A stretch of 64,000 nucleotides of DNA from Escherichia coli (GTDB taxonomy: Bacteria > Pseudomonadota > Gammaproteobacteria > Enterobacterales > Enterobacteriaceae), in NCBI RefSeq assembly GCF_030384885.1, contig NZ_CP128613.1. The stretch is one strand, 5' to 3'. Positions 1,143-41,047 of this stretch are shown here, one piece after another; positions within the stretch are counted from its first letter, which is position 1, and every line of letters starts with the position of its first letter. The translations under genes and the position numbers were made by a program. The notes beneath the pieces are model-generated. The model saw only the letters and a program-made list of their open reading frames with translations. It had not been told where the DNA came from and did no database searches.

Positions 1143-2210
1143 TTAGCCGTTCAGACCTAAACGCTCACCCTGATAGCTGCCGTCCTGCACCTGCTTCCAC
1201 CAGCTTTCATTAGCCAGATACCACTGCACTGTTTTACGCATTCCACTTTCAAAGGTTTCCTGCGGCAGCCAGCCAAGTTCACGGGCAATTTTCGAAGCAT
1301 CAATGGCATAGCGTAGGTCATGCCCTGGACGGTCAGCGACAAAGGTAATCAGATCGCGATAGTGCGCCACACCGTGCGGTTTATTCGGGGCCAGTTCTTC
1401 CAGCAGCTCGCAGATGGTTTCCACAACCTCGAGATTCTTACGCTCGTTGTGACCACCAATATTATAGGTTTCACCGACTTTCCCGGTGGTTACCACGCAA
1501 TACAGCGCACGGGCATGATCTTCAACATATAACCAGTCACGGATTTGCTGCCCGTTGCCATATACCGGCAGCGGTTTACCCGCCAGCGCGTTGAGAATCA
1601 TCAGCGGGATCAGTTTTTCCGGAAAGTGGTAAGGACCGTAGTTATTAGAGCAGTTGGTGATTAACGTCGGCAGGCCGTAGGTCCGCAGCCAGGCGCGCAC
1701 CAGATGGTCGCTGCTTGCTTTTGAAGCAGAATAAGGGCTGCTCGGCGAATACGGCGTGGTTTCGGTGAAGAAATCATCTGTGGAATGCAGGTCACCGTAT
1801 ACTTCGTCGGTGGAGATATGATGAAAACGGAACGCCGATTTTTTGTCTTCTGCCAGCGCATTCCAGTAAGCCCGCGCCGCTTCAAGCAGTGTATAAGTCC
1901 CGACAATGTTGGTTTCGATAAACGCTGCTGGGCCGTCAATAGAACGGTCAACATGGCTTTCAGCTGCCAGATGCATGACGCAGTCTGGCTGATGTTCTGT
2001 GAAAATGCGCGCCAACTCTGCCCGATCGCAGATATCAACTTTCTCAAAGGCAAAGCGATCGCTTTGCGCGACTGGTGCCAACGACATCAGGTTTCCGGCG
2101 TAGGTCAGCTTATCGACCACCACCACCGCATCGTTCGTCTCGTTGATGATATAACGCACCAGCGCCGAGCCAATAAACCCGGCACCGCCTGTTATCAGAA
2201 TCTTTCTCAT
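1143..2210 (-). CDS. rffG: dTDP-glucose 4,6-dehydratase
   Basis: 355-aa ORF; N-terminal GGAGFIGS Rossmann motif and SDR-type YxxxK; cluster position. Confidence 0.9.
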
Positions 2211-3472
2211 TAGCGCCAGACTCCTTTGGCATCGACGACATACTGCTGATGGACGTTGTCGCCATTGATAACTTTGAACTGACTATGATCGACCAACATC
2301 ACCAGCACATCTGCCGTTGCCAGCGCCTCGTCAAGCTGCGCCAGAGTACAAAGCCCATTCAGTTTGTTCGGCAACTGGTGAATGTTAGGCTCAACAACCA
2401 GCGTTTCGCCGCTGTGCCACTGAGCGATCAATTCAGCGATTTCCATCGCCGGACTTTCGCGCAGGTCATCAATATTCGGTTTAAACGCCAGACCAAAACA
2501 GGCAATTTTCAGCTCACTGGCGCGTTTATCGGTAGCGGCCAGGCAGTCGGCAACCGCCGCTTTGACCTGATCAATCACCCAGAACGGTTTGTGATCGTTT
2601 ACTTCACGCGCGGTACGGATAAGCCGCGCCTGCTGCGGATTCTGTGCCACGATAAACCACGGATCAACAGCGATGCAGTGACCACCCACGCCAGGGCCAG
2701 GTTGAAGAATATTGACGCGAGGGTGACGATTCGCCAGGCGAATCAGTTCCCAGACGTTAATCCCCTGATCGGCGCAAATCAGCGACAGTTCGTTAGCAAA
2801 AGCGATATTCACATCGCGGAAGCTGTTCTCGGTGAGTTTACACATTTCCGCCGTCCGTGAGTTAGTGACGACACACTCACCTTCGAGGAAAATTTTGTAC
2901 AGTTCGCTGGCACGGGCCGAACAAACCGGCGTCATACCACCAATCACGCGATCGTTTTTAATCAGCTCGACCATAACCTGGCCCGGTAACACGCGTTCCG
3001 GGCAGTAAGCAATGTTGACGTCCGCCTGCTCGCCCACCTGCTGTGGGAAAGTCAGGTCCGGACGCATCTCTGCTAACCATTCTGCCATCTTCTCGGTTGA
3101 ACCCACCGGCGAGGTGGACTCAAGGATCACCAGCGCGCCTTTTTTCAGCACTGGCGCAATGGAGCGAGCAGCCGATTCAACGTAAGCCATATCAGGCTCA
3201 TGATCGCCTTTAAACGGCGTGGGTACAGCAATCAGCCAGGCATCCGCTTCAACCGGCGTCGTGCTCGCTCGTAAAAAACCGCCTTCTACGGCAGTTTTTA
3301 CTACGCTCGCCAAATCAGGCTCGACGATATGGATTTCGCCTCGATTGATGGTATCAACCGCGTGTTGGTTGATATCAACACCAATCACCTGTTTTTGCCG
3401 GGAGGCAAACGCTGCCGCCGTTGGCAGTCCAATGTAACCCAGTCCAATGACAGAAATGGTCGCAAAACTCAT
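2210..3472 (-). CDS. wecC: UDP-N-acetyl-D-mannosamine dehydrogenase
   Basis: 420-aa ORF with N-terminal [15 protein letters not shown]-binding motif; overlaps wecB stop (ATGA-type coupling). Confidence 0.9.
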
Positions 3473-4599
3473 AGTGATATCCGATTATTTTTTAACGCTT
3501 CCAGAATGCGAGAGCATGCCTGACCATCACCATACGGGTTATGGGCGCGGCTCATGGTTTGATATTCGTTTTCGTCTTTTAAAAGACGCGTCACTTCCTC
3601 GACGATTCGCTGCTTATCCGTGCCGACCAGACGCACCGTACCTGCCGTCACCGCTTCCGGACGCTCGGTGGTATCGCGCATCACCAGCACCGGTTTCCCC
3701 AGCGAAGGCGCTTCCTCCTGAATGCCGCCTGAGTCAGTCAAAATCAGCCAGGCGTGGTTCATCAGCCAGACAAACGGTAAATACTCCTGAGGATCGATCA
3801 GAATGACATTTTTCACGTGCCCCAGAATGCGATTGACCGGCTCTCTGACGTTCGGGTTGAGATGCACCGGATAGACAATCTGGATGTCCTGGTGCGTGGT
3901 GGCGATGTCTGCCAGTGCATGGCAGATTTCTTCAAAGCCACGACCAAAACTCTCACGTCTGTGACCGGTCACCAGAATCATCTTTTTATCGGGGTCGATA
4001 AACGGGTAATTTGCCGCCAGCTCTGAACGCAGCGTGTCGCTGCTCATCACCTGGTCACGCACCCATAACAGTGCATCAATGACTGTATTACCGGTAATGA
4101 AGATTCGGCTGTCAGCAACGTTTTCACGCAGCAAGTTTTGCCGGGACGTTTCGGTTGGAGAGAAGTGATACATCGCCAGATGCCCGGTCAATGTACGATT
4201 TGCCTCTTCCGGCCACGGCGAATAGAGATCGCCCGTGCGCAGACCAGCCTCAACGTGACCAACAGGAATACGCTGATAAAACGCTGCCAGGCTGGTTGCC
4301 AGCGTCGTCGTCGTATCACCGTGAACCAGCACGACGTCTGGTTTGAATTCGGCAAGAATTGGTTTTAGCCCTTCCAGAATCCGACAGGTTATCTCTGTCA
4401 GACCCTGTCCTGGCTGCATTATGTTGAGATCGTAGTCAGGTACAATGGAAAAGAGTTTCAGCACCTGATCGAGCATCTCCCGATGCTGCGCAGTGACGCA
4501 AACTTTAGCCTCAAAAAAAGGATCTTTTGCCAACGCATGCACCAACGGCGCCATCTTGATGGCTTCCGGGCGCGTACCAAATACAGTCAGTACTTTCAC
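3469..4599 (-). CDS. wecB: UDP-N-acetylglucosamine 2-epimerase
   Basis: ORF 3469..4641; recognised protein begins [19 protein letters not shown], so start placed at the in-frame GTG (4599) rather than the upstream ATG. Confidence 0.85.
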
Positions 4600-35722: not shown

Positions 35723-37150
35723 ATGAGCGATAAAAAGAAGCGCAGTATGGCGGGTTTGCCGTGGATCGCGGCGATGGCCTTCTTCATGCAGGCACTTGAT
35801 GCCACTATTCTGAATACCGCCTTACCCGCAATCGCTCATAGCCTTAATCGTTCTCCTCTCGCGATGCAATCAGCCATCATCAGTTACACGCTGACGGTGG
35901 CGATGCTTATTCCGGTAAGCGGATGGCTAGCCGATCGCTTCGGTACGCGTCGCATATTTACCCTTGCCGTGAGTCTGTTCACATTGGGTTCTCTGGCCTG
36001 CGCACTTTCTAACTCGCTACCACAGCTGGTTGTCTTCCGGGTTATTCAGGGGATAGGTGGCGCAATGATGATGCCTGTTGCTCGGCTGGCCTTACTGCGT
36101 GCTTATCCTCGTAATGAGCTTCTTCCTGTATTGAATTTTGTCGCCATGCCGGGTCTGGTGGGGCCAATTTTAGGCCCCGTACTTGGCGGCGTGCTGGTCA
36201 CCTGGGCAACCTGGCACTGGATATTTTTAATCAATATCCCCATAGGTATTGCCGGCCTTCTTTACGCGCGCAAACATATGCCCAATTTCACCACCGCACG
36301 ACGCAGATTCGATATCACTGGCTTTTTGCTGTTTGGCCTCAGCCTTGTTCTCTTCTCAAGCGGAATAGAGCTATTCGGTGAAAAGATTGTCGCCAGTTGG
36401 ATTGCCTTGACGGTAATTGTCACCAGCATCGGGTTACTGCTTCTCTATATTCTCCATGCACGACGCACGCTAAACCCATTAATTTCATTAGATTTATTTA
36501 AAACCCGCACTTTCTCGATCGGTATAGTAGGCAATATTGCAACCCGTCTGGGGACCGGCTGTGTACCGTTCCTTATGCCATTGATGTTACAGGTAGGATT
36601 TGGTTATCAGGCGTTTATTGCCGGCTGTATGATGGCACCGACAGCGTTAGGTTCCATTATTGCAAAATCGATGGTTACCCAAGTCTTACGTCGTCTGGGC
36701 TATCGCCATACGTTAGTGGGGATCACGGTAATTATTGGGCTAATGATCGCTCAGTTCTCTTTGCAATCACCAGCAATGGCGATATGGATGCTGATCTTGC
36801 CGTTGTTTATATTAGGGATGGCTATGTCGACGCAATTTACCGCGATGAATACCATCACACTTGCCGATCTGACCGATGACAACGCCAGCAGCGGTAACAG
36901 TGTTCTGGCGGTCACGCAGCAACTGTCTATCAGTTTAGGCGTTGCTGTAAGTGCGGCCGTCCTTCGCGTTTATGAAGGGATGGAAGGCACAACGACTGTC
37001 GAACAATTCCACTATACGTTTATCACAATGGGCATTATTACTGTTGCTTCAGCAGCAATGTTCATGCTTCTGAAAACAACCGATGGTAATAATTTGATCA
37101 AAAGACAGCGTAAATCTAAGCCGAACCGCGTTCCATCAGAATCGGAGTAA
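35723..37150 (+). CDS. hsrA: MFS-family efflux transporter HsrA/YieO
   Basis: 475-aa polytopic membrane ORF; 22 bp after yieP (operon). Confidence 0.85.
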
Positions 37151-38108
37151 GTTGTAATCGTTGTTGCTGAAGGGTCGGTTGGGTTATCCGATGGATGAGT
37201 ACATCAATCGCCAGCTCCCCCAGTTCATCTTTCGGTTGATGGATAGTGGTTAATGGTGGCGTCATAAAGCTTGCCAGTTCGATATCGTCATAGCCAATCA
37301 CCGCGATATCCTGCGGAACCTGTAACTCTGCCTGATATAGCGCCTGGTAAACGCCAACAGCCATAGCGTCATTTCCGGTAAAGACGGCCTGAGGACGCAG
37401 CGGATGTGATAACAGTTGGCGCATAGCGTCAAACCCGCCGTTAAATTCAAAATCACCAGTGACTTCATAGCCATCAGGAATGTTGAGACCCGCACGTTTC
37501 ATCGCCGCCCGATAACCTTCCAACCGCAGGCGCGCCGGAGTTTTATCCAGCGGGCCGGTAATACAGGCGATACGGGTATGACCTTTATCGATCAGATATT
37601 GCGTTGCTAAGTCTCCGCCCAGCAACGAGTTATCCTGAATAAGATCGCTGTCGCCATCGAACGGTGCCCAGTCCATCATCACGGTAGGCACTGTCGGATA
37701 ACGTTGCATGATTTCACGCGAAGGCTGATGCGTTTCGGTGCACAGTAACAGCAAGCCATCAACGCGTTTTTGCATCAGCGTTTCCAGATTGCGATTCATC
37801 CGCTGTTCATCGCCTTCGGTATTGCAAAGGACAAGACTATAACCGCGTTCGAAGCAGCTGCGTTCAACGCCACGCACCAGTTCAGAATAGAAAGGATTGG
37901 TACTGGCAGTGATCAACATGCCAATGGTATGTGTTTGATTGAGTTTGAGGCTACGCGCCAGAGCTGATGGCGCGTAATTGAGTTCTTTAATCGCCGCTTC
38001 AACTTTGGCGGTAATCGCTTCACTGACGAAGCGATCTTTATTGATAACGTGAGAAACTGTTGAGGTAGAAACGCCCGCCAGGCGGGCAACATCTTTCATT
38101 GTAGCCAA
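37116..38108 (-). CDS. rbsR: ribose operon repressor (LacI family)
   Basis: 330-aa [35 protein letters not shown]...; LacI HTH plus periplasmic-binding-protein-like domain. Confidence 0.95.
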
Positions 38109-38111
38109 GCG

Positions 38112-39041
38112 TCACCTCTGCCTGTCTAAAAATGCGTCGATCTCTTCACGCCACGGTACGGAAGGTTGTGCGCCTTTACGTGTTACGGCAATCGCAGCGG
38201 CGGCATGGGCAAAACGAATCGCCTCTGGCAAAGTTTTTTCTTCCAGCAACGCCGTGATTAACGCGCCGTTAAAGGTATCTCCGGCAGCAATGGTATCGAC
38301 AGCCTGCACCCGGAATCCAGGAACGCGCTGACCTTCACCATTCACGCTAGCCCATACACCACGACTTCCTAAAGTAATCAGTACAGTACGGATACCTTTT
38401 TCATGCAGTACCTGCGCCGCTTTCGCTGCATCTTCATCATTTTCAACGCGAATACCGGTGAGCTTTTCTGCTTCCGTTTCGTTTGGCGTAATAATGTCCA
38501 CCAGTGCCAGCAGTTCGTCAGGAAGTTCGCGAGCCGGAGCCGGGTTAAGCGCAACGATAGTCTTATTTTGATGGGCGATTTTCGCCGCTGCCATCACACT
38601 TTCGAGTGGTGATTCCAGCTGCATTAATAATGCCGATGCGTTAGCAATACGCTCACGTTGCGCCTCCACCAGCGCAGGGGAAAGGGCTGCGTTAGCGCCG
38701 GCATGAATACCAATGACATTCTCACCTTCGCCATTAACAAAAATCAGCGCCACACCTGTTGATTCGCCTTTGATCACGCTCACCGGAGAAATATCGATGT
38801 TATCAGTGGCGAGCTGCTGGCGAACGCTTTCACCAATGCTGTCATCACCCGTACAGGCAATAAACGCGATATTCGCACCGCTACGCCCTGCAGCCACAGC
38901 CTGATTCGCGCCTTTGCCGCCAAATGCAACCTGATAGTGGTTACCGGTTACGGTTTCGCCTGGAGTAGGAAAAGATTGAAGATTAAGAATGTGGTCAGCA
39001 TTAATGCTGCCAAGAACAACGAGGCTGCCTGCGTTTTGCAT
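38112..39041 (-). CDS. rbsK: ribokinase
   Basis: ORF 38112..39068; recognised start MQNAGSLVVLGSINADHILNL (309 aa); PfkB-family motifs. Confidence 0.9.
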   Translation of the reverse strand: MQNAGSLVVLGSINADHILNLQSFPTPGETVTGNHYQVAFGGKGANQAVAAGRSGANIAFIACTGDDSIGESVRQQLATDNIDISPVSVIKGESTGVALIFVNGEGENVIGIHAGANAALSPALVEAQRERIANASALLMQLESPLESVMAAAKIAHQNKTIVALNPAPARELPDELLALVDIITPNETEAEKLTGIRVENDEDAAKAAQVLHEKGIRTVLITLGSRGVWASVNGEGQRVPGFRVQAVDTIAAGDTFNGALITALLEEKTLPEAIRFAHAAAAIAVTRKGAQPSVPWREEIDAFLDRQR

Positions 39042-39166
39042 ATTCGGGATGTCCATAAAATGCGCCACCGTGTTAGGGTGGCGCGTGCCCTGCTTTTCTT
39101 TATTTTACACGTTCATCTGTCGATGACGTATTTATGTCACCATCAGGTCATACAACCTGATTAAAA

Positions 39167-40057
39167 CTACTGCTTAACAACCAGTTTCAGATCAACCGGA
39201 TACTTAGCCTGAACTTTCTCGCCTTTCAGCACTTTATCGGCGGTTTCGACGCCTTTCGCGCCAATCTGATCGGGTAGCTGAGCGATAGTCGCTGCTAGTT
39301 TGCCATCATTCACCGCTTTTTCGCCATCCGGTGTACCGTCAAATCCGACGACCATCACATCCGATTTACCAGCAGTTTGCAGCGCGCGCAGCGCGCCCAG
39401 CGCCATTTCATCATTCTGTGCGAACACAGCCTGAACATCCGGATGAGCGGTCAACAGGTTCTGCATTACGTTCAAACCTTTAGTGCGATCAAAATCGGCT
39501 GGCTGGCTGGCAAGAACATTAAACTTGTGAGCAGCAACGGCCTGCTGGAAACCTTCGCCACGCTCACGGGCTGCGGAGGTACCGGCAATGCCTTGCAGCT
39601 CGATAACTTTGGCACCTTCACCCGCTTTCTTCGCGATATAATCCCCCGCGATTTTGCCGCCCAGTACGTTATCAGAAGCAATATGGCTCACTACTTCACC
39701 TTTCGTGGCCTGGCGGTCAAGAGTGATAACCGGGATGTTCGCCTGGTTAGCCATCTTCACAGCATTACCCACTGCGTCGGAGTCGGTCGGGTTAATCAGC
39801 AGAATTTTGGTGCCGCGAACAGTTAAGTCCTGCACGTTCGCCAGCTCTTTCGCCGGATTGTTCTGGGAGTCCAGCACCACCAGGTTATAGCCGAGTTTAT
39901 CCGCCTCTTTCTGCGCGCCATCTTTCAGCGATACAAAGAACGGGTTATTAAGCGTGGAAACCACCAGCGCGATGGTGTCTTTTGCCATCGCATTCGCACT
40001 GACGGTGGCGCTTAGCGCAACAGCGGAAACCAGGGTAGCCAGTTTTTTCATGTTCAT
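39167..40057 (-). CDS. rbsB: ribose ABC transporter periplasmic binding protein
   Basis: ORF 39167..40063; recognised start [33 protein letters not shown] with signal peptide. Confidence 0.9.
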
Positions 40058-40081
40058 ATTCAAGATGTCCTGTAGTCGTTA

Positions 40082-41047
40082 TTACTGTTTTTTGTTGTCT
40101 ACCAGCACCGCCAGCAAAATCACCACCGCTTTGACGATCATCTGGTAATAGGAGGAAACACCTAACAAATTCAATCCATTATTAAGGAAGCCAAGAATTA
40201 ATGCGCCGATCAACGTCCCAACAATGCGACCTTTTCCGCCCGCCAGACTCGTACCGCCCAGAACCACCGCAGCAATAGCATCCAGCTCATAGCCAGTCCC
40301 CGCCGTGGGTTGTGCGGAGGAGAGACGCGCCACTTCAATGATCCCGGCCAGCGATGCCAGCAGACCACAAAGAGAATAGACGATGATTTTGATTTTATTG
40401 ACGTTGATACCAGAAAGACGCGTAGCCGCTTCGTTGCCGCCCAGCGCGTAGATGTAACGCCCCAGACGCGTGTGATGCAGCATGTACCAGGCCGCGAGGA
40501 AGACAATTCCCATGATCCAGACTGGCGTCGGTACGCCCAGCGGACGACCAATACCAAACCAACCAAACAGATCGGCGTTCTCAGTAAAGCCGGTATTCAC
40601 TGGGCTACCGTTGGTATAAACCATGGTCACGCCGCGCAGTAAAAGCATCATAACCAGCGTAGCGATAAACGCCTGGACGCGACCTTTCGCTACAATCACC
40701 CCGGTTACCGCACCAATTGCGGCACCTAACGCGAGAGCAGCAGCAACAGCCACCAGCGCATTGACTTCAATGCCGACGATAGATGCAGCAACTGCGCCGG
40801 TCAGCGCCAACAGAGAACCTACTGACAAGTCGATGCCCGACGTCAGGATCACCAGCGTCATCCCGACCGCCATAATGGCATTCACCGAGGTTTGCTGGAG
40901 AATATTGAATAAGTTATTGATGGTGAAAAAGTTCGGGCTTAACGTCGAGACAATCGCGATCAGCACCAGCAGAGCGATAAGCGATTTCTGCTCCATCAGC
41001 CACGCTTTCGTGAAATAACGGCGACCAGAGACAGTCTGGGTTGTCAT
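40082..41047 (-). CDS. rbsC: ribose ABC transporter permease
   Basis: 321-aa polytopic membrane ORF MTTQTVSGRRYFTKAWLMEQKSLIALLVLIAIV... Confidence 0.95.
   Translation of the reverse strand: MTTQTVSGRRYFTKAWLMEQKSLIALLVLIAIVSTLSPNFFTINNLFNILQQTSVNAIMAVGMTLVILTSGIDLSVGSLLALTGAVAASIVGIEVNALVAVAAALALGAAIGAVTGVIVAKGRVQAFIATLVMMLLLRGVTMVYTNGSPVNTGFTENADLFGWFGIGRPLGVPTPVWIMGIVFLAAWYMLHHTRLGRYIYALGGNEAATRLSGINVNKIKIIVYSLCGLLASLAGIIEVARLSSAQPTAGTGYELDAIAAVVLGGTSLAGGKGRIVGTLIGALILGFLNNGLNLLGVSSYYQMIVKAVVILLAVLVDNKKQ

Follow-up and report, generated by a model that had tools for sequence, protein, structure and literature searches.

Convergent hsrA and rbsR genes of Escherichia coli share a 35-nt 3' coding overlap that probably arose by C-terminal extension of HsrA

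The convergent genes hsrA and rbsR of Escherichia coli have 35 nt of coding sequence in common at their 3' ends, and we put at roughly 85% the probability that this overlap is a small evolutionary accident, an extension of HsrA into the antisense of rbsR, that was then kept. The overlap is real and ordinary, and it is already known: it stands in the standard annotation of E. coli, and the pair is listed in a published catalogue of convergent transcript overlaps. The additions made here are small, and consist of the range of junction states among related species, the origin of the HsrA tail, and a signature at the synonymous sites of rbsR.

The window analysed is a 64,000-nt stretch of an E. 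coli genome (NCBI RefSeq assembly GCF_030384885.1, contig NZ_CP128613.1), and the coordinates of the junction features are collected in Table 1. As read from the open reading frame (ORF) listing and from the raw sequence, the 475-codon hsrA frame closes with TAA at 37148–37150, and the 330-codon rbsR frame on the opposite strand closes with TAG (CTA on the plus strand) at 37116–37118. For each of the two genes, the segment common to both holds ten sense codons, the stop codon and two further bases. The codon positions 1, 2 and 3 of hsrA lie opposite positions 1, 3 and 2 of rbsR, respectively (overlap length equal to 2 modulo 3). This register is termed phase 1, following bioRxiv 10.1101/2025.11.07.687268, and accounts for nearly half of the natural convergent overlaps, those of 4 nt excluded (bioRxiv 10.1101/2025.11.07.687268). 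Because of the register, a synonymous third-position change in either gene falls on a second codon position of the other.

Table 1. Features at the junction of hsrA and rbsR (positions within the window)
Feature	Position	Strand	Evidence
hsrA (yieO; RefSeq 'mdtD') CDS, 475 aa, DHA2-type MFS transporter	35723..37150	+	ORF, RefSeq CDS, Pfam, NCBIfam
rbsR CDS, 330 aa, LacI-family ribose operon repressor	37116..38108	-	ORF, RefSeq CDS, NF007743, Peripla_BP_3
Dual-coding overlap, 35 nt	37116..37150	.	Read from sequence
Lineage-specific HsrA extension, K466–E475 plus TAA	37118..37150	+	Missing in 41 of 80 species; beyond the NF007799 profile
Junction indel hot spot	37100..37118	+	Junction listing, 82 loci
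Region past the rbsR stop, inside the hsrA CDS, no intrinsic terminator	36996..37115	-	RNAalifold, terminator scan
Putative hsrA 3' UTR, opposite the 3' third of rbsR, up to a Rho-dependent region	37151..37412	+	PMC7815308

The ends of both genes are the same in other E. coli strains. RefSeq places them identically in 2013C-4282 and K-12 ('mdtD' at 2024..3451 and rbsR at 3417..4409, in locus coordinates), and over a 901-nt query around the overlap these strains are 100% and 98.8% identical to the window, respectively. Of 5426 complete E. coli genomes, 5413 matched a 95-nt query spanning the junction, and both genes are annotated where it matches. The sequence-only reading had described a 35-bp 3' overlap of convergent hsrA and rbsR, and had named over-extension of one of the two ORFs as the way in which it could be wrong. 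The overlap is borne out by the ORFs, the raw sequence, the RefSeq ends and the genome matches; both stops are genuine in the Escherichia clade, and neither ORF is over-extended in E. coli. Comparison with orthologues from many other genera gives a different end for one of the proteins, in that HsrA there is about ten codons shorter and terminates at the rbsR stop or immediately before it.

Each member of the overlap belongs to a recognised family. HsrA scores above the curated cut-offs for MFS_1 and for a DHA2 subfamily model; the Pfam MFS_1 match spans residues 17–406, and that of NCBIfam NF007799 spans residues 13–465 only. RbsR is covered over residues 1–330 of 330 by the equivalog model NF007743, and Pfam Peripla_BP_3 extends to residue 329. 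Since NF007799 ends at residue 465 and the RbsR models reach the last or next-to-last residue, the overlap is best described as an extension of HsrA over the folded C-terminus of RbsR. In the gene order, hsrA lies downstream of yieP (35008–35700) and rbsR is the last gene of rbsDACBKR. The gene names first proposed from the sequence were right for both members. We take the gene beside yieP and rbsR in E. coli to be hsrA (yieO), not the mdtD of the mdtABCD operon. RefSeq nevertheless names the plus-strand gene 'mdtD: multidrug transporter subunit MdtD' because the NF007799 cut-off is passed (457 against 426 bits), and the ambiguity between mdtD and hsrA propagates across thousands of genomes.

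Two further observations concern gene starts on the rbs strand. The annotated start of rbsR is a TTG located 3 nt past the rbsK stop (TGA cgc TTG GCT ACA ATG; 38097–38112, minus strand), and an in-frame ATG follows three codons past the TTG, so that either may be the true start. For rbsK, the mechanically called ORF (GTG at 39068, 318 aa) is nine codons longer than the RefSeq coding sequence (38112–39041, 309 aa).

The junction was surveyed with one genome scanned per species, giving 80 loci from Escherichia, Salmonella, Citrobacter, Enterobacter, Leclercia, Lelliottia, Kosakonia, Kluyvera and others; Klebsiella, Serratia and Yersinia were not among the 80 loci returned. The two genes are convergent neighbours in all 80, never with more than 3 nt between them, and the junction itself takes a small number of discrete states. 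An overlap of 35 nt is found in 34 species (Escherichia, Salmonella, Citrobacter, Intestinirhabdus, Enterobacter and Leclercia) and one of 53 nt in five species of the Lelliottia/Huaxiibacter group. Overlaps of 4 nt, in which the two stops share bases (TTAA, CTAA or CTAG), occur in many genera, including Siccibacter, Franconibacter and Buttiauxella, which form the deepest branches of the gene tree. Kosakonia carries overlaps of 9 or 24 nt, and a gap of 2–3 nt separates the genes in Kluyvera, Phytobacter and Atlantibacter. Three overlap values, 124, 124 and 40 nt (loci L054, L082 and L079), were rejected because the tblastn alignments had overrun the true stop; by eye from the junction listing, they were corrected to 4, –2 and 4 nt, respectively.

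RbsR is close to 330 residues everywhere and ends in LTP(V/E/I)L(M/V/I)xRGS(A/V), and its tail is conserved in all species groups. What differs is HsrA, which lacks the tail in 41 of the 80 species, its gene running no further than the rbsR stop; the C-terminus of the minimal-overlap species is DGRNLIKERHK(x). The spacing from the conserved hsrA codons for NLIKERHK to the rbsR stop varies among genera, and fixes the frame in which hsrA enters rbsR; in Citrobacter, for example, this distance is 4 nt shorter than in the 4-nt-overlap species. The Lelliottia/Huaxiibacter group departs from this pattern on the rbsR side as well. In these species (loci L031, L032, L035, L036 and L043) a TAG-to-TCG change has also abolished the rbsR stop, and RbsR gains six residues (RGSVSAGGDL) before a new TAA that lies antisense to the conserved Leu-Ile-Lys codons of hsrA; both genes are extended, and the overlap reaches 53 nt.

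The tail of E. coli HsrA is the antisense reading of RbsR residues 320–330, and its TAA stop is complementary to the Leu320–Thr321 codons CTT ACT. Among the variants are KPTPAPSKQE in Citrobacter and KPTHAPSKPE in Salmonella, with the consensus K-P-x-x-x-P-S-x-x-E. Read in the frame of hsrA, the antisense of rbsR contains 25 stops in 331 codons, with open runs of 1–67 codons and a median of about 8. The open run used by the HsrA tail is 12 codons, a typical length for this antisense frame, and because 3' extension at random until a stop is met would give such a run, the overlap is no longer than chance predicts. In a neighbour-joining (NJ) gene tree, the deepest branches carry the minimal-overlap state, from which we infer that this state is ancestral. 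One minimal-overlap clade sits between two overlap clades in the same tree, and the 35-nt state may have arisen once and been reversed, or may have arisen twice. The junction lengths tentatively favour a single origin that would have been followed by a 6-nt in-frame insertion in Enterobacter, Leclercia having the junction length of Citrobacter.

Taken in order, the proposed events would be as follows. In the ancestor of the sampled genera, hsrA and rbsR presumably abutted without a spacer, their stops either sharing bases in a 4-nt overlap of the TTAA, CTAA or CTAG type or lying 2–3 nt apart. An indel just upstream of the junction may then have put hsrA one base out of its former frame with respect to rbsR, in the lineage or lineages leading toward Escherichia, Salmonella, Citrobacter and Intestinirhabdus, and toward Enterobacter, Leclercia and Lelliottia. 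With the old hsrA stop skipped, HsrA would read the antisense of the last ten codons of RbsR up to the first in-frame stop, TAA. The outcome would be a ten-residue cytoplasmic tail on the transporter, with a sequence mostly dictated by the conserved folded C-terminus of RbsR, and this tail would in turn place an extra constraint on the synonymous sites of rbsR.

Such a constraint was sought by taking the four-fold codons of rbsR and counting Fitch parsimony steps at their synonymous third positions; the tree was computed from the remainder of the gene. In the 35-nt-overlap group of 35 sequences (34 species and the strain of the window), the last ten rbsR codons took 3.0 steps against 6.85 gene-wide (P = 0.0003 by random draws), and only 1% of contiguous rbsR windows are as low. 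The 40 species with a minimal overlap or none gave 7.33 steps in the last ten codons against 9.38 elsewhere (P = 0.08). Synonymous change in the overlap is thus about 2.3-fold below the average of the gene, solely in overlap-bearing species, in a test that covers 9–10 codons in related species and in which parsimony on a tree and the control group lessen the problem of kinship. An entropy version of the synonymous-site test agrees with the Fitch counts.

The HsrA frame was compared with a 'virtual tail', the same frame read where it is non-coding. The per-site amino-acid entropy is 0.74 for the real tail and 1.46 for the virtual one, a comparison to be read with the somewhat lower overall divergence of the overlap clades (RbsR tail entropy of 0.31 against 0.55). 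All 40 of the 40 overlap species have a stop at codon 11 of the tail frame, against 19 of the 41 virtual tails. Tail positions 3, 4, 8 and 9 vary freely and track the synonymous drift of rbsR: when Arg-Gly-Ser of RbsR is written CGC GGT TCG the tail reads Asn-Arg, and when it is written CGG GGG TCG the tail reads Thr-Pro. We consider with moderate confidence, from these sequence comparisons, that both frames are under purifying selection within the overlap. The HsrA tail appears to be translated and partly selected, and to feed back on the silent sites of rbsR. The earlier proposal that the overlap constrains both C-termini gains support here, from a synonymous depletion limited to the overlap species and from an HsrA tail that is half as variable as its virtual counterpart.

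These results bear directly on the possibility that the overlap is an artefact of annotation. According to this explanation, the true end of HsrA lies about ten codons earlier, as in Kluyvera, Kosakonia and Pluralibacter, the E. coli tail is untranslated or functionless, and positions 37116–37150 encode one protein. It draws on the 41 of 80 species in which HsrA ends ERHK(x), at or before the rbsR stop, on the position of the tail beyond the NF007799 profile, and on a tail length equal to the chance expectation. However, the hsrA frame of E. coli stays open up to 37148, and any ribosome that translates the gene therefore has to pass through the tail codons. The position of the stop is also kept in every overlap species, and the synonymous depletion of rbsR is confined to those same species. 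We therefore regard an artefact as very improbable. The notion of a functionless tail possibly applies to the freely varying positions 3, 4, 8 and 9.

The extension of HsrA into rbsR leaves the question of where the two transcripts end. Consensus scans found no terminator-like site on either strand between 36756 and 37915, and the G+C-rich hairpin with flanking A/T tracts at both stops that would make a bidirectional intrinsic terminator is absent from the junction. The region downstream of hsrA folds no better than shuffled sequence (z = –0.2), and that past the rbsR stop has no conserved structure (consensus of –0.16 kcal/mol by RNAalifold, 40 species). An imperfect hairpin about 40–75 nt past the rbsR stop, present in E. 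coli only, was rejected as a terminator because it has no U tract and is not conserved. The published Term-seq data of Adams et al. (2021, PMC7815308) assign no 3' end to hsrA and place none where rbsR ends; a literature search on rbsR and Term-seq returned nothing relevant. With neither intergenic DNA nor an intrinsic terminator, each transcription unit must end inside the other gene.

For the hsrA strand, such an end has a published counterpart. Supplementary file 2 of PMC7815308 reports a Rho termination region labelled 'antisense rbsR' at K-12 coordinate 3938923 on the minus strand, which maps to about 37412 on the plus strand, some 260 nt past the hsrA stop, when two supplement sequences are anchored in the window. 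The upstream and downstream reads are given there as 102 and 32 in untreated cells and 164 and 143 with bicyclomycin (Rho score 2.78, p = 7.6e-6; PMC7815308), a low-resolution call, made in 800-nt windows on the few reads of one bicyclomycin experiment. Rho would thus terminate the hsrA-strand transcript after a few hundred bases of antisense rbsR, giving mRNAs with complementary 3' ends. In addition, rbsR-hsrA is one of 165 convergent excludons called by ExcludonFinder in at least 50% of 58 MG1655 transcriptomes (PMC12288877, Table 1). The overlapping 3' UTRs that had been predicted for the pair are backed by both of these published data sets.

Several other signals lie on either side of the junction. 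A strong intrinsic terminator is present between rbsB and rbsK (39062–39084, minus strand), consisting of GCGCCACC-loop-GGTGGCGC followed by ATTTTAT, with the 3' end near 39057. The Term-seq tables report a very abundant 3' end after rbsB (84,576 and 28,585 reads in two excerpts; Adams et al. 2021, PMC7815308), and the coincidence of the two makes this terminator an attenuator within the rbs operon, upstream of rbsK-rbsR. The 5' part of rbsR contains a perfect 8-bp palindromic hairpin, ATCGCTTC...GAAGCGAT, at 38014–38035 (both strands). On the rbsR strand, the same tables place a 3' end about 4 nt after this hairpin (near 38010; PMC7815308); on the hsrA strand, a T-rich run comes after the hairpin, which scores there as terminator-like and could cap read-through from hsrA. 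Further Rho termination regions are listed in that source within rbsR (near 37948, minus strand) and within hsrA (near 36054, plus strand) (PMC7815308). The only hits of an Rfam E-value scan of 34000–40500 were to 16S rRNA and, below threshold, to Ysr197 (Yersinia sRNA 197), both far from the junction. The Ysr197 match (34650–34900, minus strand; 84 bits against a gathering threshold of 167, E = 3e-19, full model length) lies immediately upstream of the 16S rRNA gene (34000–34528, minus strand), and this 'sRNA' family is probably an rRNA operon leader.

By the published data, hsrA and rbsR form an excludon in the descriptive sense that their transcripts overlap. A stronger claim would make the overlap a selected regulatory device, in which expression of rbsR and of yieP-hsrA is mutually exclusive through convergent transcription and an RNA duplex, and in which the lack of a spacer is kept for that purpose. 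If so, induction of rbs would send rbsR transcription antisense into hsrA, and the reverse, and the partner would be lowered by polymerase collision or by RNase III cleavage of the 3' duplex. The junctions speak for this to the extent that the genes abut or overlap in 80 of 80 species, with at most 3 nt and no terminator between them; tight convergent packing with 4-nt stop overlaps is, however, common and is explained without regulation. The listing of the pair in the published MG1655 'excludome' (PMC12288877) likewise carries a qualification, since ExcludonFinder classes pairs by RNA-seq coverage alone, and overlapping coding sequences tend to qualify whenever both have reads. The reported action of Rho in limiting read-through from the hsrA strand into antisense rbsR fits with a regulatory device, but the locus is thinly covered, by about 100 reads per 800 nt (both from PMC7815308), and the strong intrinsic terminator after rbsB limits transcription into rbsR. 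Nor is there a conserved RNA structure among the 40 species aligned with RNAalifold, and a literature search found no report that tests for an effect of either gene on the expression of the other.

We accordingly hold a selected regulatory device to be improbable, and give equally little credence to a putative functional excludon that would couple ribose catabolism to YieP-HsrA efflux, with a conserved HsrA tail having a function of its own. Strong transcriptional interference between rbsR and hsrA, which had been raised as a potential consequence of the overlap, is unlikely given the low read counts and the rbsB terminator that limits transcription to rbsK-rbsR. Both genes are weakly expressed, so any effect of transcript overlap on their expression is probably slight.

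An accidental extension of HsrA that was then kept, the reading we prefer, has close parallels among known systems. In the accepted, unified model of convergent overlaps, the 3' end of a gene is lengthened until the following stop is reached (Kingsford, Delcher and Salzberg 2007, as cited in PMC3887535). Like the pairs described by that model, hsrA and rbsR have a short 3'-3' overlap, and their orthologues show both the 4-nt shared-stop state and longer states in other frames; the hsrA extension ends at the first in-frame stop, and the register is phase 1, predominant among convergent overlaps longer than 4 nt. Relatives retain a shorter hsrA, the tail is of a length typical for its frame, and it falls outside the family profile. 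In the defining features that sequence can test, the pair conforms to an ordinary convergent overlap of prokaryotic genes produced by 3' extension. Nothing essential sets it apart from the model; it adds only a measurable signature of selection on the tail, which a neutral version does not require.

With the convergent excludons of E. coli (PMC12288877), in which the pair is itself catalogued, hsrA and rbsR share a convergent arrangement and overlapping transcripts. The mscL-arfA pair also has overlapping 3' ends, and its antisense overlap is described as having a regulatory role (PMC10070815); in hsrA and rbsR the coding regions themselves overlap, and not just the UTRs. The bicyclomycin-sensitive termination in antisense rbsR, where no intrinsic terminator is present, resembles other Rho-terminated 3' UTRs and antisense transcripts of E. 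coli (Adams et al. 2021, PMC7815308), although the hsrA-strand site is only a low-resolution genome-wide call.

The locus provides a clean illustration of how convergent overlaps originate, with states of 4, 9, 24, 35 and 53 nt present in one family of genomes. It also has a practical side for strain construction. Deletion of rbs in the genome-reduced strain DGF-298 truncates hsrA at Val413 (PMC10652928). Deletions or recoding of the 3' end of rbsR also change HsrA.
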